From UHGV virus genome UHGV-1364457: DNA of 60,235 bases, one strand, 5' to 3'. This document shows positions 295 through 39,502 of the stretch, in pieces (position 1 is the stretch's first letter; the number at the start of each line of letters is the position of its first letter). The stretch comes from a virus. The translations under genes and the position numbers were made by a program. Below the pieces are notes generated by a model. The model worked only from the letters and a program-made list of their open reading frames with translations, was not told the origin of the DNA and made no database searches.

Positions 295-295
295 C

Positions 296-2107: not shown

Positions 2108-2110
2108 ACG

Positions 2111-3624: not shown

Positions 3625-3968
3625 CGGAGTGGGCCGCGTGGCAATTTGCCGAGCGGCCCACGTGTGACGAATGCCGATGGATTTATAAGGAAAAACAGGA
3701 TTGTTCATCCTGTACCCGCTTTCAACCGCTTTCCCCACGTTCTGAAATCGCCGTGGAACGGTGGGCGTCCCTTCGTCAACACGGTGCGGGCATAGATACG
3801 TGGGCGGGAATCCCGCTTCCTATCAGATATGAAGCCCTCCGCGCCGAGTGTGACCGTTTCCCTGATTCAGAAGAACTTTTTTGGCGTATTTCCCTGTTGG
3901 ACAGGCTGTTTCTGGAAGAACAGGCGAAAAAACGCGAGAAAGAAGAGAAAAAGAAGTCCAAAAAATAA
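3259..3968 (+). CDS. Tail assembly chaperone fusion (gpGT-like) made by programmed -1 ribosomal frameshift at 3615-3621
   Basis: Codon-by-codon check: the -1 frame (positions congruent to 0 mod 3) is open from 3621 through 3968 and equals ORF 3753..3968. Predicted product about 237 aa. Confidence 0.55.
3615..3621 (+). other. Slippery heptamer A_AAA_AAC (X_XXY_YYZ) for -1 frameshifting
   Basis: GAAGAAGAAAAAAACTGA; zero-frame codons AAA AAC then TGA. The same class of site occurs in dnaX and in phage G/GT genes. Confidence 0.6.
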
Positions 3969-4020
3969 GGGGGAGTTGGTAGCTCCCCCTCGACCCGGCG
4001 TAGCAGCGCCGGATCACGGC

Positions 4021-4061
4021 CCTATACGGGAATCGCGGCCCCCGTATAGGGTATCCGCGAT
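4021..4061. repeat. Interleaved inverted repeats A-B-A'-B' (H-type pseudoknot-like)
   Basis: CCTATACGGG(4021-4030) / CCCGTATAGG(4041-4050) are perfect 10-bp complements. AATCGCGG(4031-4038) / CCGCGAT(4055-4061) interleave with them. Confidence 0.5.
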
Positions 4062-4103
4062 CCCTGTCTAACGTGGGACTGCGGTTAGGGGTATGATTAT
4101 CAT

Positions 4104-4343
4104 ATGCCGCGTCCCCTCCAGATTTGTCCTGTTTGCGATACCTATTCTCTCCGTTGTTCCGAAACTCGCCCTGATGAGACGTACCTAGGGCATTATCTTG
4201 AAGCCTCACGGCGTTCGATATGGATATGTCGAACCTGCGGGGCTCGTTTTGTGCTTGATACCCCGGAAGGGAAGTTGACCAGAGTTCAGGACAGTCCGTC
4301 TTATTCTTATAGAAACACCTATCCATGTACTATGGATAGGTAA
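4104..4343 (+). CDS. Small zinc-ribbon protein (CxxC...CxxC)
   Basis: CPVC...CRTCG motif. Weak RBS. The gene end overlaps an operator-like palindrome. Confidence 0.35.
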   Translation: MPRPLQICPVCDTYSLRCSETRPDETYLGHYLEASRRSIWICRTCGARFVLDTPEGKLTRVQDSPSYSYRNTYPCTMDR

Positions 4344-4357
4344 GTAATTATCCATAG
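4318..4357. promoter_or_regulatory. Operator-like sites with TATCCAT half-sites (palindrome plus an extra half-site)
   Basis: CCTATCCAT-GTACT-ATGGATAGG (9-bp arms) plus TTATCCATAG 8 nt downstream. About 65 nt upstream of the Gly-rich operon start. Confidence 0.4.
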
Positions 4358-4420
4358 TTGAATCATCATGCCTCCAGAAGTTCCGGCATCCCGCCGGGCA
4401 AAAACTTTTGGAGGTTTCTT

Positions 4421-5260
4421 ATGGGTATGGACGGTCTCGTTCCTACTTTTTCCGTCAATGGCGACGGGAACGGCTACAATGGCGGCGGTTGGGGTGATGC
4501 GGTAGGCGCGTTCGCCGGCGCACTGATTGGTTCTTGGTGGGGCAACGGTTGGGGCGGTGGCTTCGGCAATGGCGGCGGGAACGGCGGTTGCTGTGGCTCC
4601 GCCCCTGCCGCCCCCTCGGTGGTCATTGCTGGCGGTGCTGGTGGTTGCTGTGGTTCTACTGCGGAACTTGACGCTTTGACGGGCCTTCAGGCCAGCGTCA
4701 ACAGCCTTGGCCTCCAGTCACTTCAAGGCCAGAACACGACCAATATGGCGATGTGTCAGGGATTCTCTGGCGTGGTTGCGGCTGACAACGCCAATACCGC
4801 CAGCCTGATGAACGCCACCACACAGGGTTTTGCGGGCCTGAACACCGCCATCATGACGGGCGATCAGGGGATTCAGCAATCCCTGTGTCAGGGCTTCAAC
4901 GGCCTGAACACTGCCGTGCTGGTCAGCTCCAAAGACGCCGCTCTCCAGAATTGCCAGTCCACCAATCAGCTGACCAACGCCATCGATTCGTGTTGCTGCA
5001 CGACCCAGCGCACTATCGCGGCGGAAGGTTCGGCTACTCGCGCTCTCGTGTCTCAGCTCGACCGTGAACGTCTCCTGACGCAGATCTGCGATCTCAAGAG
5101 CGAAAATTCCAGCCTGAAGAACCAGAACTTCACCACCGCCGCCATTTCCGCGCTGGGCTCTCAGCTCCGTACCGAAATGCAGCAGAACACCCTGAACATC
5201 ATCGGGCACATGGCGGTTATCCCGCGTCCCACTTCTGGCACTGCTACGGCTACGGCCTAA
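4421..5260 (+). CDS. Gly/Trp-rich protein with GGCCGS motifs and CQGF(x)G repeats (bacteriocin-like or structural low-complexity protein)
   Basis: GGAGG is 7 nt upstream of ATG 4421. N-terminal G/W-rich glycine-zipper-like segment. Two GGxGGCCGS motifs. Three CQGFxG(L/V) repeats. C-terminal CCC cluster. Confidence 0.55.
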   Translation: MGMDGLVPTFSVNGDGNGYNGGGWGDAVGAFAGALIGSWWGNGWGGGFGNGGGNGGCCGSAPAAPSVVIAGGAGGCCGSTAELDALTGLQASVNSLGLQSLQGQNTTNMAMCQGFSGVVAADNANTASLMNATTQGFAGLNTAIMTGDQGIQQSLCQGFNGLNTAVLVSSKDAALQNCQSTNQLTNAIDSCCCTTQRTIAAEGSATRALVSQLDRERLLTQICDLKSENSSLKNQNFTTAAISALGSQLRTEMQQNTLNIIGHMAVIPRPTSGTATATA

Positions 5261-5273
5261 AGGGGGGTGACCT

Positions 5274-5633
5274 ATGGCTATGCGCTATATGATGGGTTCG
5301 GAACGTGGTGACGGCTACAGCCGTAGCGGAAGCCGTTCTTCCCACGGTGGCGAGTATGGCGGGGGCCGCTATGAAGCGCGCCGCCTTCCCCCGCGCAACC
5401 GTTACGGGGAGTTCCGCCGCCGTCGCAGCCGCCGGGAATACAATGACGGCATGGGCCGTTATGAGTTCGGTGACGACTACGAAAATCGCCATTACCGCGA
5501 AGACGACTGGGATCGCTACGGTTACGACGAGCGCCGGGAGCCGTACTTTGAAGATGAAGAACGCGAACGCCGTCGCGAACGTCACCGCCGTATGATGGAT
5601 GAATACGGGGATGACGGCGACGGCTATGACTAG
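5274..5633 (+). CDS. Extreme low-complexity Arg/Tyr/Gly/Asp/Glu-rich protein
   Basis: RGG/RY-like N-terminal half, acidic C-terminal half. GGGG RBS. 11 nt after the upstream stop. Confidence 0.5.
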   Translation: MAMRYMMGSERGDGYSRSGSRSSHGGEYGGGRYEARRLPPRNRYGEFRRRRSRREYNDGMGRYEFGDDYENRHYREDDWDRYGYDERREPYFEDEERERRRERHRRMMDEYGDDGDGYD

Positions 5634-5734
5634 ATGAGGCTCAAGGACATCAAGAAGACCTTGAAGAACCTGACCAAGGATCTCGGAGCGGCGGTGATTA
5701 TCTACGGGAAACGCTGATTTTTGAACAGCATACC

Positions 5735-5971
5735 GTGGATAACCCACCCCCGACATGGCCGCCTTATCTAGCGAAGGGCGAATATTGGGGCATCGTTGAA
5801 ATGGAATACGGGGAAGCAAAGAAGGCCGTAGAAGGCTTCAAAAACGGCTCCATGTCTATCTGCGATGCCATCAAGGAACTTGGGCACGTCGCTTCTGCGG
5901 CGGCTCAGGCCCGCGCCCATCTGATGAAACTCTCTGAAATGCAAGACCTTCCTGAAAAGGTAAAGGTGTAA
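5735..5971 (+). CDS. Hypothetical protein
   Basis: ORF stop is 2 nt before the next ATG. Start uncertain (GTG 5735 or ATG 5801). Confidence 0.35.
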   Translation: MDNPPPTWPPYLAKGEYWGIVEMEYGEAKKAVEGFKNGSMSICDAIKELGHVASAAAQARAHLMKLSEMQDLPEKVKV

Positions 5972-5973
5972 AT

Positions 5974-6516
5974 ATGAGCAATAAGTTACCCCTTCCAGCG
6001 CGTTTCTCTGACGATGCAATGTCGTATTCGCTCGTGTACATCCCCGGACTCCCTGCGGATACAGATCCCCGGTATTCCGTTGAGCCCAATGTGACTAGCA
6101 TGAGGCCCATAGGTCGGAACGTCCAATCCGTGAATATCACGGGAAAAGGCAAGATGATCTTCACATGGGTCTTAATGGAGCAGCCCGCCAAACCGGGGAC
6201 GACAACCCCGGCCCGGCAGTATCTCTTCTTCCGGCTCTCGGATAAGCCTATCCCCTTGGATTTGCTCAAGCCTGGAGACATGATTTGCTACGCTGCTACG
6301 CCAAAACACGTCACTACAGATCCCGCTCAATGCTTTGTCGATTCCCTGTTTGGTCAGGTTTCGGCAGACGCACAGGCGGAACGTCCCCGTGACACGTGGG
6401 CAAGCGAACTGTTCCAGCCCCCACAGGAGCAGGAAGAAACGGAAACGGCCCCTCAATCTGAGATGCGGATTTCTGAACCCAACGGACAGGAAAACCATCA
6501 GGAGGAAGGGGAATGA
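5974..6516 (+). CDS. Hypothetical protein
   Basis: Tight coupling to neighbours. Acidic Q/E-rich tail. Confidence 0.5.
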   Translation: MSNKLPLPARFSDDAMSYSLVYIPGLPADTDPRYSVEPNVTSMRPIGRNVQSVNITGKGKMIFTWVLMEQPAKPGTTTPARQYLFFRLSDKPIPLDLLKPGDMICYAATPKHVTTDPAQCFVDSLFGQVSADAQAERPRDTWASELFQPPQEQEETETAPQSEMRISEPNGQENHQEEGE

Positions 6517-6746
6517 GCGAAGAAACCACCGTCGACCGCGTCTTTCGGCGCATAGAGCAGGATGTAGAACGTATTCTTGACCGTGAACCGAGTTCACGGG
6601 GTGTCCTTAATCAGGTCATCCAAGAAGGCGCGCCTATGTTCATGGCCTACAAGATGCGTGGTCGTGTCCCTTCGGTTGACGCTCTGGAAAGGGTAGCTAC
6701 CAAGTTGCTTGCCATCGTCGTAGCAACGGAAGAAGCGAGACGATGA
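6513..6746 (+). CDS. Hypothetical protein
   Basis: ATGA overlap with the upstream gene. Followed by a hairpin terminator. Confidence 0.5.
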   Translation: MSEETTVDRVFRRIEQDVERILDREPSSRGVLNQVIQEGAPMFMAYKMRGRVPSVDALERVATKLLAIVVATEEARR

Positions 6747-6753
6747 ACCAACA

Positions 6754-6784
6754 CCCCGGAGGGTTCACATCCTCCGGGGTTCTC
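6754..6784 (+). terminator. Rho-independent terminator-like hairpin ending the 4421-6746 operon
   Basis: CCCCGGAGG-gttcacat-CCTCCGGGG followed by TTCTC (short T tract). Confidence 0.5.
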
Positions 6785-7169
6785 AAGGATATTCGATATG
6801 CTACAATCATTTTTTTTGATGCGTAGAGTTCCTATACTGGTTCCCCCTTTTGTAAAGACCGCACCGCAAACCGCGTTGGGCGATGAAAAAGCAAAGAGGG
6901 CATCGGTACAATCCCTCTCTTCCCAAAAGGCAATAAGGCGTTCTGCAAAGAAAAAGGTCAAAAACAATGCCGACGCCGGATGATTCTGTATCCCCCAACG
7001 TCTTGAATCGCCCGTATCTGTTATGTGCTCTTTGCGCCCTGTGGATTCCGGGAAAAAGTCAGGAATCTAGGAACAATGACGCGGGGATATGTTCAAGAAA
7101 GAGGTGGCCTGAGATGAAGACAAGGCCGACAGACGGATGCAGGGAAGGTATCAGGCCAATGGGGGCGGC

Positions 7170-7391
7170 ATGACGCAAGACGAGAGAAAGCTTGTTGAGG
7201 TGCTTCTTTCCATCGACACCGCACTACCTCACGATTTCCCCTTACCCGAAGACGCACCCCGACCAGCATGGTGTCATCTTTTTATGCTGCATTTTGGAAC
7301 GGAAAAAGGCGAATGCTGCGGGATATGCCCGGAATTAAGCGAGGTAATGGTACAAGCCCTTGATAGGGTATATGAGAAATCAGGCTCCTGA
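7170..7391 (+). CDS. Hypothetical small protein
   Basis: GGGGGCGGC lies before ATG 7170. Start chosen inside ORF 7137..7391. Confidence 0.35.
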   Translation: MTQDERKLVEVLLSIDTALPHDFPLPEDAPRPAWCHLFMLHFGTEKGECCGICPELSEVMVQALDRVYEKSGS

Positions 7392-7565
7392 ATGGAGCCT
7401 TTCTTTTTTCGGAAGACGCAAACTTTCGTACCAACATCTTCTGGTTTTTTCCTCTCCAAGCGCATTGAATCTCTCTCGATATCCGGTGTCCGGTCGCTGA
7501 TGTGGTTCTCCTCTGTTACATATTGGCGGCGCGGACACATCAACCATCTAACAGAGAGTTTGTGT

Positions 7566-8342
7566 ATGTCCGAAATGCAAATTTTCGAGAAGGCTGAGTT
7601 TGGGAAGGTTCGGGTTGTCGAGCGCGATGGCCAGCCGTGGTTTGTGGCTAAGGACGTGTGCGAGTGTCTGGAACTTACTGATGTGAGCAAAACCATTTCC
7701 CTTTTGGATGACGACGAAAAGGGTACGAACAGTATTCGTACCCCCGGAGGAGAACAGCAGATGCTCGTCGTATCCGAACCCGGCCTGTATTCCCTCATCC
7801 TCCGTTCCCGCAAGCCGGAAGCCAAGGCGTTCAAACGGTGGGTGACGCATGATGTCATTCCCTCCATCCGTAAGCGCGGCCTGTACGCCACTCCTCAAAC
7901 CATCGAAGCTATGCTTGCTGACCCCGATACGGCTATCAAGCTGCTTACGTCACTGAAAGAGGAGCGTGCCAAAAGTGCCGCCCTCGCCGCCAAGGTCGAA
8001 CAAGACGCGCCGAAAGTCCTTTTTGCCGATTCCGTTGCGGCTTCCCGTTCGTCCATCCTGATTGGAGACTTGGCAAAGCTTCTGGTACAAAATGGCGTGA
8101 AGATCGGACAGAACCGCCTTTTTGTCTATCTCCGCGAGAAAGGCTTCCTCATTCAGTCCGGAAGCCGGAAGAATACGCCAACGCAGAGAAGTATGGAGAT
8201 GGGGCTGTTTGAGGTTAAGGAATACCTCGTTCATAACCCTGACGGCTCCACGCGAACGCGATTTACCACAAAGGTCACAGGCAAGGGGCAACTCTACTTC
8301 GTCAAAAAATTTCTCTCTGCCAACACGCCCGTAGCCGCCTAA
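7566..8342 (+). CDS. Phage antirepressor, Bro-N domain plus KilA-C (ANT) domain
   Basis: N-terminus FEKAEFGKVRVVERDGQPWFVAKDVCECLEL is Bro-N like. The C-terminal half is KilA-C like. ATG 7566 chosen inside the longer ORF. Confidence 0.7.
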   Translation: MSEMQIFEKAEFGKVRVVERDGQPWFVAKDVCECLELTDVSKTISLLDDDEKGTNSIRTPGGEQQMLVVSEPGLYSLILRSRKPEAKAFKRWVTHDVIPSIRKRGLYATPQTIEAMLADPDTAIKLLTSLKEERAKSAALAAKVEQDAPKVLFADSVAASRSSILIGDLAKLLVQNGVKIGQNRLFVYLREKGFLIQSGSRKNTPTQRSMEMGLFEVKEYLVHNPDGSTRTRFTTKVTGKGQLYFVKKFLSANTPVAA

Positions 8343-8401
8343 ATTTCCCCCTTCCCTATGCGAAAGCCCCAACCGTCTTGTCCTCCCACGGTTGGGGCTT
8401 T

Positions 8402-9031
8402 TTATTTATCTTCATTTACAGGTAGTTGTATGTTGGCATCAAGCCATGCATTTATGGCTTCCTGTATTACCCGTGAGCGCAGGACACCCTTATCTGCACA
8501 AGCTTTATCCAGACGCTCCCAAACTATATCCGGCATGGACACGGTTCTCGTCGTCGCCCGGCTTTCAGTCTTTTTTTTACGCCCATGTTTTTCTTTGAAT
8601 TTCCCGGAGATACCTTTTCGTGCACAAGCTTTATAGACGGCAGGGCGAGAGCATCCTAGCTTTTTTGCCACCTGAGCGACGGAAATTTTATCCATCTCAT
8701 CTATACTATCCCAATCTATGCTCTTAACCTGAGCATACGCAGGAATTCCCCTCACCTTCCGAGCGTGGATCACAGCAGCACGAGTGCATCCGAGTCTTCG
8801 TGCAAGGTCTTCGTCTGTACATTTTCCTAAATCTGAAATCAAATCCCATTTTATTTTATAGCTTTTTTTAGATGCTTTGGAAGTAAATGGGGCGATTCCA
8901 AGGCGTTTTCTGGCATAGTACACAGAAATTTCTCGGCAGCCTAGTTTTTCGGCTATTAAGCGGTCAGGAATCATGCCCAAGTCTTTTACAGCGTTCCAGT
9001 CAATCTTTTTTCTTTGCGGCTTTAAAGGCAT
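8402..9031 (-). CDS. DNA-binding protein with three or four tandem ~42-aa HTH-like repeats and a C-terminal RHH-like segment
   Basis: Repeats I(D/K)W..I.(D/E)LG...D.LA..LGC.R.AV..AR..GI occur three times clearly, with a fourth diverged copy. C-terminus TVSMPDIVWERLD...RSRVIQEAINAWL is RHH-like. Confidence 0.5.
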   Translation of the reverse strand: MPLKPQRKKIDWNAVKDLGMIPDRLIAEKLGCREISVYYARKRLGIAPFTSKASKKSYKIKWDLISDLGKCTDEDLARRLGCTRAAVIHARKVRGIPAYAQVKSIDWDSIDEMDKISVAQVAKKLGCSRPAVYKACARKGISGKFKEKHGRKKKTESRATTRTVSMPDIVWERLDKACADKGVLRSRVIQEAINAWLDANIQLPVNEDK

Positions 9032-9058
9032 ATGCTTATCCCAAGAAATTTTACTTTA

Positions 9059-10024
9059 TCATTTTTCTTTTATTCCTACCGGAATGGGCGGCATCCAGCG
9101 AAGATCAAAACGCCTTGGTTTTGATTCAATCCCCGGTTTGGCCTTGATTGTTCCGCTCCAGAATCCATGCCAGTGGGCACGCCGGATATGTGGGCTTGGG
9201 GAACCATGCGGGCCTTCTTTGGGTGCATATTCTCTTGACTCGCGCATTACCCTCCCAAACTCTTCTCCGATATGCCAGATTCGCATCTTATCCGGTGGAA
9301 AGAGTCTTATCCCCTTTTTGGTCTTTTGAGGATGAGGAGAAGATGGAGCTTGTCCGTTGTTACCCGATGTAGGCCATTGAATTCCGTCTGAACAGAGGTA
9401 CAGCGTCAGGTTGAGGGCGTGCGTGATCCATTTTTGCATTTCAGCATCAAAGGGGAGCAGTTGGATCTCAGGATCGTTTTTTTTAGCTTCCGCCATCATC
9501 CGCGCTATGCTTTCTTCAAGTGAGAAATTTCCGAGATGCAAGGGTACGGCTCTTTGTTCCCCAGAAGCCCAGTGAAAGAGAAAACGCAGCTCGTTGCGCC
9601 CATTATTCGCGTCTTCCTCAAGATGTACAAAAACGCCGGGGGCATTATCCCCTTGCAGTTCCAAGTAGGCGCACCAAACGGGAAGGCGCAGGGCTACATC
9701 GCAAGGAATGGCTCCTGAGAGTTCAGTGCCCGCTATGGCCTCGTATACGGTCGGATCGAAAGTGAAGACATCTTGAGAAGGCCGCCAAGCGCCAAGCGCC
9801 GCAAGAGCCTGCATGAGAGGTATAAGCGGCATGTCATCAGGGGAAAGCGGTTCTTTATCTAAAAGCTCACACGTGATCGCATACCATCCTGCAAAGGGCA
9901 AGAAACACCATGCGGGCCAATCGGGTAAATCCTTACCGCGATCAGCCCGAAATTCATCGGCGAGCTTCCACGCGGTGGAATACTTTTTATTGCATTCCAC
10001 CAGCAAAGATTGTGGGTTAAGCAT
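9059..10024 (-). CDS. Hypothetical 321-aa protein, Trp/His/Arg-rich C-terminus
   Basis: Co-directional operon with small upstream genes. RRAHWHGFWSG...RRFDLRWMPPIPV motif. No family recognised confidently. Confidence 0.5.
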   Translation of the reverse strand: MLNPQSLLVECNKKYSTAWKLADEFRADRGKDLPDWPAWCFLPFAGWYAITCELLDKEPLSPDDMPLIPLMQALAALGAWRPSQDVFTFDPTVYEAIAGTELSGAIPCDVALRLPVWCAYLELQGDNAPGVFVHLEEDANNGRNELRFLFHWASGEQRAVPLHLGNFSLEESIARMMAEAKKNDPEIQLLPFDAEMQKWITHALNLTLYLCSDGIQWPTSGNNGQAPSSPHPQKTKKGIRLFPPDKMRIWHIGEEFGRVMRESREYAPKEGPHGSPSPHIRRAHWHGFWSGTIKAKPGIESKPRRFDLRWMPPIPVGIKEK

Positions 10025-10033
10025 GGTTTTATC

Positions 10034-10237
10034 CTATTCATCACCCCAAGGTCGACCAGTTGCAGACCAAATCTTTCCGGGGTTGTAGTAACGGCGAGTG
10101 CCGCCTTCACTAGGCTTTTCTCGCATATTTCGGATTATCCCTCCCCGTCTCTTCGCAAGAAGCATTGCTTCCTTGAGGGTTTCAACGCGAGTACCGCCAT
10201 CTTCATCTTCCATCGTGTAAACATAATAGCGTTCCAT
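10034..10237 (-). CDS. Hypothetical small protein
   Basis: 67 aa. Abuts neighbours on both sides. Confidence 0.4.
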   Translation of the reverse strand: MERYYVYTMEDEDGGTRVETLKEAMLLAKRRGGIIRNMREKPSEGGTRRYYNPGKIWSATGRPWGDE

Positions 10238-10440
10238 TATTCAGCTTCCCTCCATTCCCCATAGTTAGAATCATATCCCGGCTCACCTGCGGTATTGCGC
10301 ACCACCTCTATGAGTTCTCCATCTTCAAAACTTTCTCCGCCCCATTGTTCGGCGGTCATGTTTTCGAAGTCGGCTCGCCATTCGCTTTCAGGGGCAACGC
10401 TTCCAGTGTATGGGTTCATCAACATGCGTTCGGTAGTCAT
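10237..10440 (-). CDS. Hypothetical small acidic protein
   Basis: 67 aa. ATGA-type coupling to the downstream gene. Confidence 0.4.
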   Translation of the reverse strand: MTTERMLMNPYTGSVAPESEWRADFENMTAEQWGGESFEDGELIEVVRNTAGEPGYDSNYGEWREAE

Positions 10441-10543
10441 AATGGTTTCTCCTTTTGTTCCCTTTCGTTGAAAACACTATGCTCCTTTTCGTGGTTTTTG
10501 TCAATAAAAATCACCTTAAATTATTTCATATAAAAACAGTATA

Positions 10544-10714
10544 TTATATATTTTTTTCAAGAATGGTTTCAAAAAAAGCACTAAGTGTCTGTCTTCTTGT
10601 CTCGGCTTCTAGCTTCACACGCTCTGCTAAAGCTTGAGGTAGATAGATCGTAACTCTTTGGGTTTTATCAGCTCTAGGCGGGCGTCCTACCGTCTTTTTT
10701 TTCTCAGTGGGCAT
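10544..10714 (-). CDS. Ribbon-helix-helix (CopG/Arc/MetJ-like) regulator, 56 aa; absent from the ORF track (<60 aa)
   Basis: Hand translation: MPTEKKKTVGRPPRADKTQRVTIYLPQALAERVKLEAETRRQTLSAFFETILEKNY*. AGGAGAT RBS is 7 nt upstream. Classic RHH beta-strand TIYLP followed by two helices. Confidence 0.5.
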   Translation of the reverse strand: MPTEKKKTVGRPPRADKTQRVTIYLPQALAERVKLEAETRRQTLSAFFETILEKNI

Positions 10715-10767
10715 TTCTATCTCCTTTTTGTCAATTTTTATTACCAGAAATCAATTTTGTAGGCAAT

Positions 10768-10795
10768 AAAAGGCGGCCCCGAAAAGCCGCCTTAC
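10768..10795. terminator. Hairpin terminator candidate (could act in either direction)
   Basis: AAAAGGCGGCC-ccgaaaa-GCCGCCTT in an AT-rich intergenic region. Confidence 0.45.
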
Positions 10796-10960
10796 CGTGA
10801 GCTAGCGATCATAGAAAAAACTGAGAATATCCTTAGATTTCAAGGTGTTAAGCCTATCCAGAGGCGTTCAATCCGTATCGGCCGCGAAATTCCAATAAGA
10901 ATGGATTATTTCATTATATTTAAATATATTATTCTTGAATTGACGAAATGAAATGCAAAA

Positions 10961-10990
10961 AAGAAGGCGGTCGTGATGACCGCCTTTATT
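10961..10990. terminator. Hairpin terminator candidate
   Basis: AAAAAAGAAGGCGGTC-gtga-TGACCGCCTTT, A/T-flanked on both sides. Confidence 0.45.
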
Positions 10991-10992
10991 GG

Positions 10993-11202
10993 TTAAGCCT
11001 CTTGTGCGCCTACTTTTTGTCTAAACTCTTCAAGTTGGATTTCGGACTTGCGCCTATCTTTTCGATACCACAGGAACATCATCACAGCGGCATACGTACT
11101 TAGCATAGGAGCAATCCAACCCATATCACGAGTCCAGCCCGCCGCAAATCCCATGCATAGAAGCATGGCACCGTGAAGGTATCTCTTTATCCTTGGATTC
11201 AT
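10993..11202 (-). CDS. Small two-TM membrane protein (holin-like?)
   Basis: Hydrophobic segments LLCMGFAAGW and IAPMLSTYAAVMMFLWY. Adjacent to an XhlA-like gene. Confidence 0.4.
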   Translation of the reverse strand: MNPRIKRYLHGAMLLCMGFAAGWTRDMGWIAPMLSTYAAVMMFLWYRKDRRKSEIQLEEFRQKVGAQEA

Positions 11203-11211
11203 AGAAACTCC

Positions 11212-11469
11212 TTAAAAGCCAAGCCAGCCGAAGCCCTTGGCCATAATAGCGGCGAGAGCTACCCACCCGCCGATCTGCCACTTGAGCAGGCGGAGTTCCA
11301 TTTCCTTCATTTCTTTCTGAATGCGCAATTCAGTTTCGTGCAGATCGCCTTTGGTAGCAACCGCGTTCTTCTGGTTTTCGTCATATTTTTCCAGCGTTTC
11401 TATGATAGCGCGGGCTGCTTCTTCACCTATGGCCTTTTCAAGCCTTTTTCCATCGTCAAACAGCAACAT
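11212..11469 (-). CDS. Coiled-coil protein with C-terminal TM segment (XhlA-like haemolysin family candidate)
   Basis: 85 aa. Central coiled coil, C-terminal GGWVALAAIMAKGFGWLGF. Confidence 0.35.
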   Translation of the reverse strand: MLLFDDGKRLEKAIGEEAARAIIETLEKYDENQKNAVATKGDLHETELRIQKEMKEMELRLLKWQIGGWVALAAIMAKGFGWLGF

Positions 11470-11770
11470 GGGAAGAATCCTCCGTCTGCATGGAGTTTAT
11501 CTGAAATGGGGCGGATTGCAATCTGTCCCCCTTCCACCGGAGTGCGGACTTTCCCTGTCCCACGTCGAGCAAGGCCAGCGCGTAGGGCGTGAGGAGGTAG
11601 TAGCGCAGGGAGTTTCCCTTGGCATCGGTACGCCGGGCGGCTTCAAATTCCGGGGCTTTCGTGTCGGGAAGGAGCACGCGAAGGCGGTCGATGTCCCTGA
11701 GCACCTGCCCATGCTTGCGGTTTGCGACTCGGGCCACTTCGAGAGAGGTCGTGACGTAGGTGCGTTCCAT
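11456..11770 (-). CDS. Phage regulatory protein Rha family
   Basis: TSLEVARVANRKHGQVLRDIDRL resembles the Rha N-terminal signature. Confidence 0.6.
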   Translation of the reverse strand: MERTYVTTSLEVARVANRKHGQVLRDIDRLRVLLPDTKAPEFEAARRTDAKGNSLRYYLLTPYALALLDVGQGKSALRWKGDRLQSAPFQINSMQTEDSSHVAV

Positions 11771-11772
11771 GC

Positions 11773-12723
11773 CTAAGCCCTCCCATTCCCGTTCAACTGC
11801 CTGACGATACCAAGCAACGAGTATCCGGGATTGCTGTACTGCTCAAGCTGTCGTCCCGGCGCGGTGAGTGCCTTCCTGACGTCATGGTACACGCTTTGGT
11901 GCAGGTAGCCGCGCAAGGTGTTCTCAGACAGCATATCCGGGACAAGGTACAGCCGGATGTCCGCCCGGCGTTCGAGGGCTTCGGATACCTTCCAACTTAA
12001 GGTGAACACGCTGTGATGGAGGTTCGACAGAATGCGGTCTACTTCCTCATGCGCCGCCTGCACCTCTTCGATGAACTCCAAGAAAGGCTTTTCGTCTATC
12101 ACCGGATGCGCTGCACACGGGGCGGGGAGGGCGGCTTGAGGCAATGCCTCTATCTTCCCCGCATTGACCTGCATGGAGAGCAGGAAATCCCGCGCATCAT
12201 CCATGCGAGAGCAGGGGAGTTGCTTATACTCGGCAATATGGAAGTGGCGATTAAAGCGTGTCCAAATTTCCTTGTACGCCCGACGCTGTACGGCCTTGGG
12301 CACCATCCCGGCCTTGGAGTCCACAATCAGCTTGAGTTCGGCGCGCTGTTCCGGGGAGATCGGGGCGTCATTGAGCGTTACGGGGTGGGCAATGGGCACC
12401 CTGTCGCCGTACTGTTCGATGACATCCAGTACCCAACGGCGGAACGCCTTAGCGACGGGGGTCCGGGCGAACATGGCAAGAAGGTGGCAGCCGCGAAGGG
12501 AGAAGATACGAACCCGGACCGTCAAATTGACGGTGTCGAGGTTTTCAACAACTTGCGTCATGTTTTCGGTGAATTCGTCTGCGTTTCTGTCATACAGGCG
12601 GCTCAGAGTATCTTCTCTGGCATACCCTAAAGCGCGGGCGATTTCAGATGACTTGAACCACGGCTGGTTGTCTCGCGTGACAGGGGAGAAAGTGAAATCA
12701 TTGAAGCAGAGAGAAGCGGTCAT
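11773..12723 (-). CDS. Bro-N domain protein (antirepressor-like)
   Basis: FNDFTFSPVTRDNQPWFKSSEIARALGY is Bro-N like. 316 aa. Confidence 0.6.
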   Translation of the reverse strand: MTASLCFNDFTFSPVTRDNQPWFKSSEIARALGYAREDTLSRLYDRNADEFTENMTQVVENLDTVNLTVRVRIFSLRGCHLLAMFARTPVAKAFRRWVLDVIEQYGDRVPIAHPVTLNDAPISPEQRAELKLIVDSKAGMVPKAVQRRAYKEIWTRFNRHFHIAEYKQLPCSRMDDARDFLLSMQVNAGKIEALPQAALPAPCAAHPVIDEKPFLEFIEEVQAAHEEVDRILSNLHHSVFTLSWKVSEALERRADIRLYLVPDMLSENTLRGYLHQSVYHDVRKALTAPGRQLEQYSNPGYSLLGIVRQLNGNGRA

Positions 12724-13068
12724 AGTGACCTCCTGTTAGGTTGTTCAATTCCCTTTCCCTAAATAGAAAAAGAGCCGGGAGCTTGAACACCGCCTAACAG
12801 TGCGGCCCATACACCTTTCCCTTGCGGGTCTTGTATAATGGATGGACTCCCGGCCCAAATACAGGCTGGATAATAGACCACTCCCAAGGTGAAAAACACT
12901 CTTGACAGGGCGTAAAAAATCCGCATCTGCGGGCGCGGTATCCGCTGTTAGAACGGCTGTTCAAGGCCGTGGGTAGACAACGCCACAGAAACGGGGGAAT
13001 GTCAAGGCAACGGTGATAGGCCCCAAAAGAGGTTGAAAAATACGCTAGCATCAGATATAAAAAGTTTA

Positions 13069-13096
13069 TTGAATTTGGCTTATAACTGGTTATAAG
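13069..13096 (+). promoter_or_regulatory. Sigma70-like promoter (TTGAAT-16-TATAAG) with embedded perfect palindrome CTTATAAC-TGG-GTTATAAG
   Basis: -35 at 13069-13074, -10 at 13091-13096. 8-bp inverted repeat at 13079-13096. AAGAGG RBS, then ATG 13116. Confidence 0.4.
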
Positions 13097-13115
13097 TGGT
13101 TAAAGAGGATAGCAC

Positions 13116-14306
13116 ATGGAAGAATTGCAGAATCCCTATGTCCCCGGAGCAGGAATACAACCTCCTGAATTGACTGGACGAGATGTGTTTTTGGAACATG
13201 CCCAAATGACTATTAAACGAGCAGAACGCAATTTTTTTAGTAAATCTTTTATTGCAGTTGGGTTACGAGGAGTTGGCAAGACAGTTGTCTTAAATCGTAT
13301 CAAGAGAATTGCAGAGGATCATAGTTGTGAGGTCGCGTTAATTGAAGTACATGAAGATAGAAAACTTTCATCTTTACTTGTACCTGTCATAAGAAAAATT
13401 CTTCTATCTTTAGATAGAAGGGGATCCGTGTCAGCCAGCGTAAAATATGCATTAAGAACATTAAAGAGCTTTATAAGTGTAATTAAGGTGTCTTATGAAG
13501 GAATTGAATTAAGTATTGATCCTGAAGTGGGAGTTGCAGATACAGGAGATTTGGAAATAGATTTGCCTGATTTATTTGTTGCAATCGGCAAAGCTGCCAT
13601 GTCAAAAAAAGTAACTATTGTCTTTATATTAGATGAAATACAGTATTTATCTGAAAAAGAGATGAGTGCATTGGTTATGTCTATGCACAAAACTTCTCAA
13701 GAAAACTTACCTGTCATATTAATGGGCGCTGGACTTCCGTTGCTTGTTGGTAAAATTGGTGAATCAAAAAGCTATGCAGAAAGATTGTTTAATTTTCCAG
13801 AAATAGGCGCTTTGAGCTATGAAGACGCATGTAAAGCTATTAATAGCCCTGCAAAGCGTGAAGGAGTAGAATTTGATGACAGAGCATTAAGAAAAATATT
13901 TAAAATCACTCAAGGCTATCCATATTTCATTCAAGAATGGGCATATGTATGCTGGAATATAGCAAATGGACCTGTCATTACTTGTGAAGATGTAGAAAAG
14001 GCTACTTCCAAAGTCATAACACGCCTTGACCAAAGTTTTTTTAGGGTTAGATTTGATAGATTAACCCCAAGAGAAAAACAATACTTGAGAGCCATGGCAG
14101 AATTGGGACATGGACCACATAGATCTGGAGATATAGCAGAAAAACTTCGGGTTCCAAGCAATAAGCTTGGCCCATGCAGATCGACTCTTATTTCGAAGGG
14201 GATGGTATACAGTCCATCATATGGAGATACTGCTTTCACTGTCCCTCTTTTTGATGAATACATGAAGAGAACGATGCCTTTTGCTACATGGAATGAACCA
14301 GAATAG
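13116..14306 (+). CDS. P-loop NTPase (Orc1/Cdc6- or archaeal-ATPase-like AAA) with probable C-terminal winged helix; low-GC accessory gene
   Basis: Walker A GLRGVGKT. Walker B VTIVFILDEIQ. N-terminal NPYVPGAGIQPPELTGRD. Markedly AT-rich relative to flanks. Confidence 0.7.
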   Translation: MEELQNPYVPGAGIQPPELTGRDVFLEHAQMTIKRAERNFFSKSFIAVGLRGVGKTVVLNRIKRIAEDHSCEVALIEVHEDRKLSSLLVPVIRKILLSLDRRGSVSASVKYALRTLKSFISVIKVSYEGIELSIDPEVGVADTGDLEIDLPDLFVAIGKAAMSKKVTIVFILDEIQYLSEKEMSALVMSMHKTSQENLPVILMGAGLPLLVGKIGESKSYAERLFNFPEIGALSYEDACKAINSPAKREGVEFDDRALRKIFKITQGYPYFIQEWAYVCWNIANGPVITCEDVEKATSKVITRLDQSFFRVRFDRLTPREKQYLRAMAELGHGPHRSGDIAEKLRVPSNKLGPCRSTLISKGMVYSPSYGDTAFTVPLFDEYMKRTMPFATWNEPE

Positions 14307-14338
14307 TCTAAAATATAAATGCATTAAACAAATAGACG

Positions 14339-14362
14339 AAAGGCGGCCCATAAGCCGCCTTT
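14339..14362. terminator. Hairpin terminator between convergent genes
   Basis: AAAGGCGGCC-cataa-GCCGCCTTTATTTTGTT. Confidence 0.5.
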
Positions 14363-14368
14363 ATTTTG

Positions 14369-14905
14369 TTATTCAGTAACGCTAGCCTTTGCTTTCTTTA
14401 TACCAAGTAATTGCTCTTTGAGGACTTTTACAATCTCCTGCGCCACGTCATCAAAAACAGTCTTCCATGCCCCGATGGTGTATCCCCCGCCAGCGGCGAT
14501 ACTGCGATTCACAGGGATTTTAGCCACAAGTACGCCTTCCGGGGTGTAGATTTCGCTTTCGGTAACGAGCTTAGTAGCTCCTGCACCGGGAAGCATCCAG
14601 CGGGCAAAAGCGTTGCCGGGGGAGTATTGCAGAATGGTTGTTTTGATAACGTAATCATTCCCTGCCAAATCCTCTGTGGCGAGTGCAGCGGTGAGAGAAG
14701 ATTTCATTGCGTCAGTAAGTACGATTTTGTCGTCCTTCTCTCCAAACACAAATCCAGATTTATCCGTGACTTCTCCTGATTCAAACTTAGCAGTTTGTGC
14801 AACTTTCATGGTCGGGCTGAGTCCTTCAAGGCTTGACTTGGTGGAACACCCGACCATCCCGAAACACATCCCCGCCACAACCAGCGTCAATAAAAGTTTT
14901 TTCAT
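14369..14905 (-). CDS. Lipoprotein (signal peptide with lipobox MVGC)
   Basis: MKKLLLTLVVAGMCFGMVGCSTK. 178 aa. Adjacent to the tape measure gene. Confidence 0.6.
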   Translation of the reverse strand: MKKLLLTLVVAGMCFGMVGCSTKSSLEGLSPTMKVAQTAKFESGEVTDKSGFVFGEKDDKIVLTDAMKSSLTAALATEDLAGNDYVIKTTILQYSPGNAFARWMLPGAGATKLVTESEIYTPEGVLVAKIPVNRSIAAGGGYTIGAWKTVFDDVAQEIVKVLKEQLLGIKKAKASVTE

Positions 14906-15023
14906 AACTCCTCCTGCCGATTCCGAACCATACCGGAGTTAGAAAGTCAACAGGTTGTTCATCGTGCGCTCAATAGCGGTTGACATGCGCCGGAAAATGT
15001 GGAGGGTGTGGGGGAAAAGGGGG

Positions 15024-15602
15024 ATGAATATGGAAGTATTATCTTTATTGCCCGGATTATTAGTATTATGTACTATTGGGAGTCTCTTTTTCCCTAAAAC
15101 TATGGCCTTTTGGTCTAAAAAAGAATCGCCAAGCAGATTAGGAACGTCAATAATTTACTTGTTTATTTTTTTTATTGCCTCAACTTATGTTTATAGAGAT
15201 AATAGTATATATCAAGATGATATAGTAAAAGAAGATATTAAAAATGATGCAATAGAAAATAATTCATATATTTATGAGATTCAACAATTAAAATCAAATA
15301 AATTAAACAAATTTGGTAAATATACTATAGAAGTATTTAAAAATGATCCAAAAAGAATGCTTATAAATATAAGATATGATAGAAAAATTTCCATAAAAGA
15401 TGCTATGGAATCTTCAGAAGAGTTTGCCCGCATTACTGCACGTCTTATTGCAAAAAAAGATGGAGAAATTAATAAATATATTAGTGTATTTCCGGGCTAT
15501 ATGACACAAGGTGAAACAGGAAAAAGCATCTTTATAACGTATAAAGGATATGCAGAGTATTCCCCTTATTCTGATTCTATTTCATGGATTAACGAACAAT
15601 AA
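15024..15602 (+). CDS. Low-GC membrane protein (two N-terminal TM segments)
   Basis: About 30% GC. GGGGGA RBS. Hydrophobic N-terminus, soluble K/D/E/I/N-rich C-terminal domain. Confidence 0.45.
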   Translation: MNMEVLSLLPGLLVLCTIGSLFFPKTMAFWSKKESPSRLGTSIIYLFIFFIASTYVYRDNSIYQDDIVKEDIKNDAIENNSYIYEIQQLKSNKLNKFGKYTIEVFKNDPKRMLINIRYDRKISIKDAMESSEEFARITARLIAKKDGEINKYISVFPGYMTQGETGKSIFITYKGYAEYSPYSDSISWINEQ

Positions 15603-15740
15603 CGGTATCTCTTATTGCCTCCAAAGCTCCCCATGCCTTGCAGGGGAGCTTTTTTTATGCCCTTCTCACATTTCGTACCAACGTTATGTCGCTTTTTCTC
15701 CTCCGATTGTGTTTGGTTTTACCAAATCAGTGAGGGTATT

Positions 15741-18449
15741 ATGGGCTTTACTGTCAAAATCGATCTCAATGAATTCAATCGGAAAATGGAAGAGGCAAAG
15801 AGAACAACTTCTGAGTTTTCCAATACGTTGAAAATTGTTCCTAGAGAAAGCCAAAATGCCGCACAGTCCTTAACCAAGCTAGGAAATACTGCCGTAACAG
15901 CTTTGAAGGGATTCGCTACCGCTTACGTTGTAACGCGAATAAATGAATTGAGAAAAGAGCTTGTCCAAGCGGGATCAGATGCAGAAGAAACTGCAAACAA
16001 ATTCAATGTAGTATTTGCTACTGTCTCCGAAAGGGCAAACCAAGCTGCTGACAATCTCAGGCTCAATTATGGATTGTCCCGTGAAGGAGCACAAGCCGCC
16101 CTTTCTAGCGTAGGTGACTTGCTTTCTGGCCTTGGAGTCGCCTCTGATAAGGCCCTTGAGCTTGCCCAACAAACAGTACAGCTTGGAACAGACTTAGCTA
16201 GCTTTACAAACTATGCAGGAGGAGCAGAGGGGGCAACACAAGCATTAACCAGTGCTCTCCTTGGAGAAACGGAAGCGGCTAAATCTTTGGGCGTTGTCCT
16301 TACGGACGACCAAATGGAAAAATACGCTTCCTCTGTGGGTAAAAGCTGGAAAAATCTCAATCTTGCAGAAAAAGCACAATTACGACTCAACGCCGCAATT
16401 GCTCAATCTCCTAATGCTGTTGGAGATTTTGCAAGAAGTATGAATAGCTATGCAAACCAAGTTCGCATAGCTGACGCTATTAGTAGAGATTTTACTACTA
16501 CAGTTGGTGAAGGTCTTCTTCAAGCTCATACATCCACTCTCATTGCAATTAATGGAAATCGTGGAGCTATTGAACAATTATCTACAGTCATATCTGGATT
16601 TTTAGCGTCAGAATCAGACGATTTAATATCTTTTATGGATGATGTGTCTGATTCTGGGGAAAAATCATCAACAGAAATATCCATACTTGCCTCTTCTTTC
16701 ATTCAGGCATCGGGTGGAGCTAAAGCCCTGTGGAACGGGATTCAAATTGCTGTAGATGGAATAATAGCTTTAGTAGATACTGTTATAGTTGGTAAAGAAC
16801 AAATAAATCTTTTTGGAGAAGCTCTATATAGAGTGATGACATTTGACTTTGAGGGTGCTTCTTCTTCGCTTAATAAAGCAGGTGAAATAGGTAAAAACTG
16901 GTCAAAAAATATAAGAGAATCTTTTTCTATAGACTGGAATGATATGACAAAAGGTCTAGATATGGTTTCTAGGCCAGATGCATTCTTTAAAGAATATACT
17001 AAGCGTGTTGAAAAGTTAAGAAAAGACGCTGCTGAATCCGCAAGAAAAACAGCACGCTCTAGTGGAGGTGGAACTGGAACTAATACTACCTCTACTGACT
17101 CAGAAAAAAGTAAGATTGAATCAGCGAAACGTGCGCTTGAAGGGGTCCGTGCTGAAATAGAAAAAATGCGTGGTTCTGGTAATGATTTTGGGATTGATCT
17201 TGTTAGAAAGCTTGATGATATAGCTAAGAATGCCAAAACAGCCGGACTTTCTATGTCCGAGATGAACGCATTACAAAATGAATACGCTCAAGCTGCAACT
17301 GCACAACATTATCAGAAAATAGCTGATGCAATCCGTGATGTAGATATTCAAATTGCCAATCTTAACGGAGATACGGCTAAAGCACGTATTCTTGAAGTCA
17401 ATAAGCAAGTTGAGGAGTTAACTAGGCGTTTAACGGAACTCGGGGAAGCTCCAGATAGAGTTACGAAAAAGGCTCAAGAGCTTCGCGCAGCCCTTAACCT
17501 GCAATCGCAGATCAAGGACGCGCAAGCCGCCGCCGACTTCTACCGTGAGCTTGCGCAATTGTCGGGAAACTATGGGCGTTCTCAGGAATATGTGGACCAG
17601 CTTCTTTCGCTACAGGCGGACAACCTGATTCGGAACGTGGGCATCACCCGTGAGCTTGCGGACGAATGGTTGCGGCTCCAGAAAATACAGAACAGCCGGG
17701 AAGCATGGGCCGGGGCGTACCGGGCAACGCAGGAATATTTCTCAGAGGCTACCAACCTCGCGCAAGGTTTTGAGAACCTGACCAGCAACGCCTTTTCGAG
17801 CATGGAAGACGGAATAGTCAGATTTACCATGACCGCAAAGCTATCGGTTAAGGACATGGTGAACTCTATAGCTTCCGATCTGATGCGAATTACGGTGAGA
17901 TCGAGCCTCACGGGGCCTCTGGCTGGTGCGTTGGGTGGCCTGTTCAACTTTGGAGGGGGCACTACCACAACGTCGGTTATGGGCAATTCCATATCCAGCG
18001 GTTGGGCAAGTTCTTTCATGGGCGGCTTAAACTTCTTCGCTACAGGTGGCGTTGCTTCCCCCTCGTGGGGCCTCCCAAGCTCCGGTGGGCTCCTGACTCG
18101 CCCCACGTATTTCCATGACGGCATGAACCGGGCCTATGCGCACGGCGGGCTTTCCGTAGCAGGTGAAGCCGGTCCGGAAGTCTTCATGCCTGCCGTTCCC
18201 ATGTCTGACGGGAAATATGGGGTGCGGGTGCAGGGAATGGGTTCATCCAGCCCTGTCGTAAACGTCACCGTCATCAACAACGCCGGGGCGCAGGTCGAGA
18301 CGAACCAACGGCAAAATGAAGACGGAAGCCTTGATGTTGAGATCATGATTGACCAAATGGTCACCCGTAGCATGGTCAAACGCAGTGGGGGGGCAAGCAA
18401 CGTGCTCCGCAAGGGCTACGGCATCGGAATGATTCCTATTTCAAGATAA
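15741..18449 (+). CDS. Tail tape measure protein
   Basis: About 900 aa, alpha-helical, A/Q/E-rich coiled coils. Position upstream of the distal tail genes. Start chosen at MGFTVKIDL with a GAGGGT RBS. Confidence 0.75.
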   Translation: MGFTVKIDLNEFNRKMEEAKRTTSEFSNTLKIVPRESQNAAQSLTKLGNTAVTALKGFATAYVVTRINELRKELVQAGSDAEETANKFNVVFATVSERANQAADNLRLNYGLSREGAQAALSSVGDLLSGLGVASDKALELAQQTVQLGTDLASFTNYAGGAEGATQALTSALLGETEAAKSLGVVLTDDQMEKYASSVGKSWKNLNLAEKAQLRLNAAIAQSPNAVGDFARSMNSYANQVRIADAISRDFTTTVGEGLLQAHTSTLIAINGNRGAIEQLSTVISGFLASESDDLISFMDDVSDSGEKSSTEISILASSFIQASGGAKALWNGIQIAVDGIIALVDTVIVGKEQINLFGEALYRVMTFDFEGASSSLNKAGEIGKNWSKNIRESFSIDWNDMTKGLDMVSRPDAFFKEYTKRVEKLRKDAAESARKTARSSGGGTGTNTTSTDSEKSKIESAKRALEGVRAEIEKMRGSGNDFGIDLVRKLDDIAKNAKTAGLSMSEMNALQNEYAQAATAQHYQKIADAIRDVDIQIANLNGDTAKARILEVNKQVEELTRRLTELGEAPDRVTKKAQELRAALNLQSQIKDAQAAADFYRELAQLSGNYGRSQEYVDQLLSLQADNLIRNVGITRELADEWLRLQKIQNSREAWAGAYRATQEYFSEATNLAQGFENLTSNAFSSMEDGIVRFTMTAKLSVKDMVNSIASDLMRITVRSSLTGPLAGALGGLFNFGGGTTTTSVMGNSISSGWASSFMGGLNFFATGGVASPSWGLPSSGGLLTRPTYFHDGMNRAYAHGGLSVAGEAGPEVFMPAVPMSDGKYGVRVQGMGSSSPVVNVTVINNAGAQVETNQRQNEDGSLDVEIMIDQMVTRSMVKRSGGASNVLRKGYGIGMIPISR

Positions 18450-39499: not shown

Positions 39500-39502
39500 G
39501 CC

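Follow-up and report, generated by a model that had tools for sequence, protein, structure and literature searches.

The interval between the G/GT chaperone genes and the tape measure gene of gut siphophage genome UHGV-1364457 is probably an accessory-gene locus

Introduction

What kind of DNA separates the tail assembly chaperone genes from the tape measure gene in UHGV virus genome UHGV-1364457, and how are the tail genes beyond it expressed? Few features of long-tailed phages are as well conserved as the order tail tube-G/GT-tape measure, which serves as an anchor in annotation. In the 60,235-nt stretch of DNA analysed here (the window), an initial annotation placed an island at positions 3969-15740 between the G/GT genes and the tape measure gene and proposed a tolerated hotspot for accessory genes inside the tail operon. 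Our analysis agrees with this proposal. We conclude, with a probability of about 0.8, that the G/GT-tape measure interval is an accessory locus kept by recombination in temperate gut siphophages, whose host is probably Bilophila, and that the tail operon is split into two late units. Throughout, we infer gene functions from homology and position.

Results and Discussion

The G/GT pair lies 11,772 nt from the tape measure gene

The tail tube gene (2111-3259, + strand; Pfam Phage_tube_2, E 2e-15) lies outside the island on its left flank, with the Hc1 (head closure), Neck1 and tail terminator genes upstream. Directly 3′ of it is the gene for tail assembly chaperone G (3259-3624, + strand; 121 aa). 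The 3′ end of this gene reads GAA GAA AAA AAC TGA; read in the G frame, the slippery heptamer A_AAA_AAC (3615-3621, + strand) is placed correctly for slippage into the −1 frame. From the heptamer onward, this frame has no stop before 3966-3968 and encodes the T extension (3621-3968, + strand) of the predicted GT frameshift product. In the related contigs L181, L182 and L186, G homologues at the same position are 36-58% identical, T homologues are 34-59% identical, and A_AAA_AAC is kept at the end of G. In the family scans, G gave no chaperone-family match. The T part matched only phrog_3817 'tail chaperonin', weakly (E 8e-4), and G of L181 gave a weak PF27119 match. The slip site, the open −1 frame and the same arrangement in three relatives nevertheless identify 3259-3968 as the G/GT pair, as had been claimed.

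The tape measure gene forms the right flank (15741-18449, + strand; Tape_meas_lam_C, E 1.6e-19, and PHROG tape measure families). Its start at 15741 agrees with the N-termini of related tape measure proteins. The GT stop and the tape measure start are 11,772 nt apart, and the island coordinates given initially are exact. As a baseline, we used 47 other IMG/VR loci with a related tape measure gene and enough upstream sequence. A −1 G/GT pair was found no more than 42 nt from the tape measure start in at least 40 of them, which is a lower bound because the script misses runs of seven A. An earlier baseline, the distance to the nearest upstream co-oriented open reading frame (ORF), did not discriminate, and the explicit G/GT test was used instead. 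The placement is thus as unusual as the initial annotation held it to be. The island has about 22 genes in at least six transcription units (four or more had been claimed) on both strands, and makes up 20% of the genome.

Relatives carry different cargo, or none, at the same junction

Five IMG/VR contigs (R1-R5; stitched, one of them from an isolate genome) have tube proteins 98-99% identical to that of the window and were used as close relatives. An island of 9.6-14.6 kb lies at the junction in all five. Positions 1-8400 of the window are collinear with R1-R5 at 95-97.5% nucleotide identity; positions from about 8400 to 14843 match in short segments only. In this mosaic part, the cassettes between short conserved linkers differ among phages that are otherwise 95-99% identical. 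One linker, at 10768-10998, has low GC content and two terminator hairpins (10771-10796 and 10964-10986). It is 83-91% identical in R1-R4, and it is kept although the flanking cargo differs. Another, at 14843-15024, is a putative divergent promoter region; its identity is 95-99% in each of the five close relatives.

Outside the slot of the leftward operon described below, the mosaic part of the relatives' islands carries HEC-02A/B (E 2.7e-146 and 7.7e-40) and the NYN-domain protein HEC-09, the defence models of PADLOC-DB 2.0 that were matched in relatives. HicB and HicA were identified by PDB matches (E 5e-15 and 3e-8). Further cargo includes a ParA-like ATPase, a VRR-NUC protein, YbjQ-domain proteins and other lipoproteins.

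More distant relatives show other states of the junction. In L181 (tube 48% identical), the site is empty, with a gap of 3 nt from the T stop to the tape measure ATG. In L182 (77%), the junction holds one reverse-strand gene for a 108-aa secreted-type protein and a bidirectional terminator, about 0.5 kb in total. L143 (50%) has the full layout of the window, including the AcrVA2-like gene described below, and HEC-02. L186 and L187 (43%) have G, the slip site, T, a zinc-ribbon gene, the left cassette and p84, followed by variable cargo: HicAB and a 72% identical ATPase in L186, other genes in L187. L184, L185 and L007 (72-74%) have zn79 and the cassette, followed by an inverted block from the tape measure gene to NlpC.

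The inverted block consists of the tape measure gene, two minor tail genes and NlpC (L184:15400-20569, L185:13959-19179 and L007:12616-17731). It converges on the end of the cassette, has no host-specificity gene 3′ of NlpC, and was found in many independent contigs.

Collinear relatives therefore include some with the island and some without it (L181, L182, R1-R5, L143 and L186/L187). Since some relatives lack any island, it is dispensable for the tail module. The comparison bears out the proposed hotspot, having found an abutting version (L181), a one-gene site (L182) and seven relatives whose islands of 9.6-14.6 kb differ in cargo. Base composition also departs from the approximately 52% GC of the phage in parts of the island: 35-37% in the ATPase gene, 28% in the gene of membrane protein mem215 and 37% at 10501-11000. 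Cassettes would be exchanged by homologous recombination at the linkers, with occasional illegitimate insertion of foreign low-GC genes. The suggestion that several insertions assembled the island agrees with the mosaic pattern, the linkers and the deviant GC content. The left third is not a recent insertion.

A repeated motif precedes the tape measure gene

A motif of about 40 nt, TTTCGTACCAAC-N8-9-GTyGnTTTTTyCyCTCC (written by its ends, TTTCGTACCAAC...TTTTTCTCCTCC), was found first as a two-copy repeat. The window has four + strand copies, compared with 0.28 expected, and none of 100 shuffles reached four. The first copy (7424-7462) precedes the antirepressor gene ant, behind a hairpin with a T-run at 7382-7400. 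The second (15671-15708) ends 33 nt before the tape measure ATG, downstream of a terminator hairpin with a T-run (15627-15657, + strand). The third (47224-47261) is 33 nt upstream of the endolysin (lysis) gene, a spacing equal to that of the tape measure copy, and the fourth (56800-56837) lies before the scaffold/capsid genes. A hairpin with a T-run precedes three of the four copies.

The motif is kept at the same places in relatives, including before the tape measure gene in all close relatives. In L011 and L012, whose tape measure genes are otherwise different, a diverged copy stands behind a terminator in front of these genes. The motif is absent from lineages that do not have this regulatory background. 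We consider it probably the late promoter or leader of the lineage. The head-neck-tube-G/GT unit ends at conserved stem-loops directly 3′ of the GT stop, and the motif copy in front of the tape measure gene points to a way in which the tail genes stay expressed despite the split. It would restore co-ordinated expression of the tape measure and tip genes, which would form a separate, co-regulated late unit.

The left third is a conserved portable cassette

The left boundary of the island is a G+C-rich stem-loop cluster (3968-4100, + strand) at the end of the head-tube-G/GT unit. The RNA fold of 3960-4110 has a free energy of −76.6 kcal/mol (z −4.65), and the pairing of the first two hairpins is kept by compensatory changes in L184 and L007. 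Directly 3′ of the GT stop, the hairpin at 3970-3990 and its equivalents in L001, L004 and L143 show both orientations in phages that are nearly identical (GAGTTGGTAGCTC vs GAGCTACCAACTC), a flipped stem-loop.

The cassette begins with zn79 (4104-4343, + strand), encoding a small CxxC...CxxC zinc-ribbon protein. Homologues of zn79 lie 5′ of the gly gene in L143, L184, L186, L092 and L145. Since it moves together with the cassette, zn79 is more probably a regulator belonging to the cassette itself. An Ogr/Delta-type late activator was considered and dropped; the Ogr_Delta match was sub-threshold (E 0.012) and came from the L007 homologue only. The next gene, gly300 (4358-5260, + strand; likely start 4421; phrog_9288, E 3.5e-23), encodes a protein with a Gly-rich N-terminus followed by a helical, Cys-rich part with a CCC motif. 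It has at least 322 database homologues, none of them named, and its CCC motif is invariant. Relatives of gly300 were found in 52 GTDB species genomes of several phyla, and the homologues range over Bacillota, Bacteroidota, Pseudomonadota and Gastranaerophilales.

Four further + strand genes follow. The first, lc119 (5274-5633), encodes a low-complexity protein rich in R, E, D, Y and G that is 100% identical in close relatives and has a compositional homologue in the cassette of L089. The same L089 cassette has homologues of p78 (5735-5971; 44% identical), p180 (5974-6516; 39%) and p77 (6513-6746; 39%). The p78 gene occurs with gly in 15 loci, p77 was found in 8 loci, and p180 gave no match in the family scans. 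AlphaFold models of gly300 (pLDDT, the model confidence, 41) and p180 (pLDDT 43) were both unusable. The small Cys-rich protein p84 (7137-7391, + strand), encoded 3′ of the cassette, has homologues in L143, L184, L186 and L188. After it come the terminator at 7382-7400, the first motif copy and ant (7392-8342, + strand; likely start 7566). The Bro-N/KilA-C antirepressor reported here was confirmed by Bro-N (E 8e-26) and KilAC (ANT, E 4e-33) matches, together with phrog_130 (E 4e-99).

The left third (3969-8400, from zn79 to ant) is kept in every island-bearing relative, down to 43% tube identity, which marks it as an old module that is portable and was not inserted recently. Its cassette does not deviate in GC content. 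The cassette was rejected as a lysis module, since a region with a Peptidase_M15 endolysin lies at 47.3-48.3 kb.

It is conceivable, although we consider it doubtful, that the zn-gly-lc-p78-p180-p77-p84 cassette encodes late virion-associated or assembly proteins and that only the right two-thirds of the interval are truly accessory. The cassette has the orientation of late genes and lies directly 3′ of G/GT in four lineages. Its conservation exceeds that of the structural genes beside it: the proteins lc119, p78, p180 and p77 are 99-100% identical, compared with 91-95% for G. Elsewhere, in gut phages from several phyla (L086, L089, L144, L145, L186 and L188), the cassette often stands last in the late operon: it lies 3′ of a tail fibre gene in L086, 3′ of giant polyvalent-protein genes in L089, L144 and L188, and just before the holin gene in L145. 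However, L181 and L182 share the tail module but lack the cassette, which has a small putative regulator gene of its own. The cassette also lies between repressor or Rha genes and the integrase gene in L089 (cI-type repressor) and L144 (beside the integrase gene), and the PHROG and Pfam scans gave no structural annotation for it.

A leftward operon encodes an AcrVA2-like protein

Beyond ant, a leftward operon has the order RHH56-s67b-s67a-u321-HTH209. Its 321-aa protein u321 (9059-10024, − strand), reported initially without a function, belongs to phrog_6160 and is a homologue of AcrVA2 of the AcrVA2/FinQ family (PDB 7ci1, E 6.8e-14). It is 88% identical to an L143 protein that carries a precomputed PF26125 AcrVA2-like annotation. 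In the 7ci1 alignment, u321 retains the equivalents of AcrVA2 residues W79, D89, H286, R288 and H291, including the HxRxxH motif. These residues were reported to be important for AcrVA2 activity, and members of the family are found mostly in hosts without Cas12a (bioRxiv 10.1101/2022.11.29.518452).

The last gene of the operon, HTH209 (8402-9031, − strand), encodes a 209-aa protein with three tandem helix-turn-helix (HTH) repeats, supported by HTH family matches; it is a candidate Aca-like regulator. A 126-nt DNA repeat (D6) coincides with these tandem repeats. The gene had been described as a tandem HTH with a ribbon-helix-helix (RHH) end; the HTH repeats stood, and the RHH-like C-terminal end was recognised only by eye. 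The operon begins with RHH56 (10544-10714, − strand; RHH_1, 22.7 bits with a cut-off of 20.5; RHH_5, E 1.6e-5). Between it and u321 are two genes for 67-aa proteins, s67a and s67b (10034-10440, − strand), which gave no match in the family scans; s67b is 80% identical in L143. Candidate control elements seen for the operon are a promoter-like site (10572-10476) and a direct repeat of 32 nt with copies at 10495 and 10725.

In relatives, the slot of this operon is occupied by a gene for a 463-470-aa Cas8f/Cas5f-like protein (PADLOC Cas8f, E 2e-24, and Cas5f, E 9e-23; Pfam Cas_Csy2). The N-terminal part of the protein gives the Cas8f match and the C-terminal part the Cas5f match, and it has a partner of 166-191 aa. 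The loci are on the − strand (L001:16603-18517, L002:16407-18691 and L008:3582-5532). A gene for a 73-aa HTH protein (HTH73) lies 3′ of the Cas8f/Cas5f-like gene in R1 and R5, and none was detected in L002. HTH73 takes the same terminal position as HTH209 and is 59-61% identical to part of it. The Cas8f/Cas5f-like protein is a candidate Cascade-poisoning anti-CRISPR (Acr). There is a published precedent for Cas5 and Cas8b homologues as anti-CRISPRs, AcrIB3 and AcrIB4 (bioRxiv 10.1101/2023.06.24.545427).

Two properties of acr-aca loci were found here. The operon encodes a homologue of an experimentally validated Acr, and a terminal HTH gene is shared between different upstream genes (HTH209 after u321 and HTH73 after the Cas8f/Cas5f-like gene). 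We propose that RHH56-s67b-s67a-u321-HTH209 may be a counter-defence operon of the acr-aca type, in which u321 would lower the level of a host or rival-element protein and HTH209 would act as autoregulator.

The Bro/Rha operon and the question of an immunity region

A second leftward operon lies to the right of the low-GC linker. It begins with a gene for a Bro-N and ORF6C antirepressor-like protein (11773-12723, − strand; Bro-N, E 6e-13; ORF6C, E 5e-6; phrog_2127, E 8e-45), followed by one for a Rha-domain protein (11456-11770, − strand; Phage_pRha, E 3e-8). It ends with the small membrane-protein genes tm69 and x85 (10993-11469, − strand), which are 98-100% identical in relatives and gave no family match in the scans. 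The initial annotation had paired Rha and Bro-N genes with an XhlA-like/membrane pair. The Rha and Bro-N/ORF6C assignments hold; the label 'XhlA-like' for x85 found no support, as no family matched at any E value up to 10. Immediately 5′ of the Bro gene is a full-length sRNA-Xcc1-family RNA (12765-12855, − strand; RF02221, 60.8 bits with a gathering score of 53). It also precedes the Bro gene in L009 and L012, and in APSE phages sRNA-Xcc1 has been reported upstream of an ORF6N gene. This small RNA may control the adjacent Bro/Rha operon.

Such genes raise the question of whether the interval is instead an integral part of this phage lineage, a second region for regulation or immunity that the lysis-lysogeny decision would require and that simply happens to lie in the late region. 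Examples are the immI regions of P22 (mnt-arc-ant) and P1 (c4-icd-ant), which the island resembles in having, within the late or virion region, an antirepressor that a small RNA or small repressor would control. The two antirepressor modules, one with an adjoining small RNA, the RHH and HTH proteins, and the conservation of the left third, including ant, in all island-bearing relatives would fit this explanation. Unlike in immI, however, the RNA is sRNA-Xcc1 and not c4 or sar, no c4 match was found, and no Arc/Mnt arrangement was found beside ant; RHH56 is in another operon. Relatives with the same tail module have no such region or only one unrelated gene, and the right part mostly differs between near-identical phages. 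Much of the island content, and most of it in comparison with immI, has nothing to do with immunity: the AcrVA2-like gene, the ATPase and the lipoprotein in the window, and HEC-02/09 and HicAB in relatives. An immunity region is therefore unlikely, and we retain the accessory locus as the better explanation.

The right part holds an ATPase, a lipoprotein and a membrane protein

The low-GC P-loop ATPase of the initial annotation was confirmed as an orphan AAA ATPase (13116-14306, + strand; AAA_22/AAA_16, 396 aa). An 8+8-nt palindrome (13079-13096) lies 20 nt before its start codon. The family has more than 8000 homologues, is strongly conserved, with about 56% identity across Proteobacteria, and is found at accessory positions in unrelated prophages (L146 and L148). 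The 72% identical copy in the L186 island is at L186:13999-15195. No PADLOC system matched the ATPase. A bidirectional terminator, found on both strands (14339-14362), separates this gene from the convergent gene of a DUF4410 lipoprotein (14369-14905, − strand; Pfam DUF4410, E 4e-12; signal peptide with Cys). The lipoprotein is identical in R4, and other lipoproteins take its place in R1-R3 and R5.

The last island gene encodes mem215 (14955-15602, + strand; likely start 15030). It is present in R1, R2 and R5, and a YbjQ-domain protein is found instead in R3 and R4. The lipoprotein and the low-GC membrane protein are thus both present as described initially. A k-mer search for sequences in common with the region upstream of mem215 gave nothing convincing. 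The ATPase, the lipoprotein and the membrane protein may be exclusion or defence morons expressed in the lysogen.

The island has sharp boundaries on its left (the GT stop) and its right (just short of the tape measure start), as it would if a single mobile element (a transposon, satellite or integrative element) had inserted once between GT and the tape measure gene. We regard such an origin as very improbable: the family scans found no recombinase or transposase among the island proteins, there are no flanking direct or inverted repeats, relatives show intermediate and mosaic states, and GC content is heterogeneous inside the island. An assembly chimera is hardly credible, even though the relatives' data are mostly metagenome assemblies, for the same architecture is found in at least eight independent contigs from different samples, including isolate prophage IMG 2562617176.

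Points that weigh against an accessory locus with a split tail operon

Several observations tell against the accessory locus as we describe it. Island presence is patchy compared with tube identity, being lacking in L182 (77%) and found in L186 (43%), so that gains and losses cannot be ordered. The motif could be something other than a promoter, and the left cassette, being co-oriented with the late genes, could be virion-related. Many units had been said to have their own terminators, and four sites with a clear hairpin and T-run were found (7382-7400, 10964-10986, 14339-14362 and 15627-15657), together with some promoter-like sites, but consensus promoter and terminator counts were no higher than in shuffled controls. 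PADLOC-DB 2.0 gave only weak single-domain matches and no known defence system for ten island proteins of the window. The claim of defence- or exclusion-like cargo accordingly stands for the AcrVA2 homologue and for the HEC, HicAB and Cas-like genes of relatives, but not as a known defence system in the window. Finally, the Bilophila host call rests on one match to a metagenome-assembled genome (MAG).

A wider claim is possible, and we put it forward tentatively. The junction may be a dedicated exchange locus for defence and counter-defence across a gut siphophage group; its uncharacterised residents would then be new systems, and the tail operon would have adapted to it through a second late start signal. 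If this is true, candidate new systems are the cross-phylum five-gene cassette with zinc-ribbon and Gly/Cys-rich proteins, the orphan 396-aa ATPase, the two 67-aa proteins beside the AcrVA2-like gene, and the 166-191-aa partner of the Cas8f/Cas5f-like protein. New systems could then be sought at this locus by position, as was done with acr loci.

Comparison with known systems

A limited literature search turned up no published island of 10-15 kb at this junction that is bidirectional and comprises several operons. The nearest parallels are smaller or lie elsewhere. HK97 gp15 is reportedly a moron inside the late operon. Tab of JBD26 is a moron between terS and terL (PMC10884400). Like these morons, the island consists of extra, dispensable genes among virion genes that are present or absent across relatives and that, as morons often do, may serve lysogen exclusion or defence. 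Tab and gp15 are single small genes, whereas the island comprises at least six units with about 22 genes on the two strands, and the tail genes beyond it would depend on a start signal of their own. At the same junction, an HNH gene shows presence/absence polymorphism among close relatives in Corndog-type mycobacteriophages. There, the insert is a single co-oriented gene of the homing-endonuclease type, about 0.6 kb long, in contrast to the multi-operon cargo seen here.

Mu-like Pseudomonas phages have acr-aca loci embedded in their structural region. The present locus resembles them in its variable counter-defence genes, its shared terminal HTH gene and its fixed slot among late genes. It differs in that the operon here is predicted from sequence and that its Acr homologue is of the AcrVA2/FinQ family. 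Rousset et al. (2022) are said to have described defence-system hotspots of P2-like phages and P4-like satellites. These likewise have fixed positions between conserved genes at which diverse defence cassettes replace one another. They are not at the G/GT-tape measure junction, and here defence, counter-defence, antirepressor and other modules are mixed.

The junction tolerates up to about 15 kb of bidirectional cargo, and even inversion of the tape measure block. The coupling of G/GT to the tape measure gene therefore need not be transcriptional. Counter-defence, defence and antirepressor genes are concentrated at this locus, which makes it a positional guide to new ones. The locus also exposes a widespread phage cassette, that of gly300 with its homologues in several phyla, and the phages concern a gut sulfidogen, probably Bilophila, that is clinically relevant.

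Genome setting and other observations

The window reads as a complete, circularly permuted genome of a temperate siphophage. Head-tail connector, tube and tail genes occupy 1-27 kb, followed by a tyrosine integrase gene (26815-27918) and leftward early genes at 28-37 kb (− strand) for RecT, a PDDEXK exonuclease and a MazF-like toxin. Five tRNA genes are at 39.0-39.7 kb, and genes for RusA, dUTPase and the Peptidase_M15 endolysin at 45-48 kb. Putative terminase, portal and capsid ORFs at 51-59 kb were assigned by size and place and named through Pfam matches of their L143, L182 and L184 homologues.

A near-identity search against GenBank phages and E. coli genomes gave no match to the window, and a profile scan of genome contigs with the tube alignment gave none either. 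The best homologue of one island protein among GTDB species genomes was in an uncultured Bilophila MAG (87% identity), and the related contigs derive from human-gut-type metagenomes. Early regions, compared through RecT and a 316-aa early protein, differ among close tail relatives. Mosaicism is genome-wide in this phage group, and the G/GT-tape measure junction is therefore one hotspot and not the sole one.

The N-terminal half of the tape measure gene (15741-17500) and the preceding mem215 gene both have low GC content (28-45%). Only the C-terminal half of the tape measure is shared with L011 and L012, which places a recombination joint within the gene. L013:1-10000 has a tape measure relative that is 72% identical in its C-terminal part and apparently split. 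Upstream of it are genes for a large serine recombinase and a 700-aa protein instead of tail genes, and this contig is probably a decayed or rearranged prophage.

The PemK/MazF-like toxin gene in the early-left region (35983-36396, − strand) has low GC content (38%) and may be another moron. One of the five tRNA genes, the ARAGORN tRNA-Phe with anticodon AAA (39410-39510, − strand), is unusually long at 101 nt and has the lowest Rfam score of the five.

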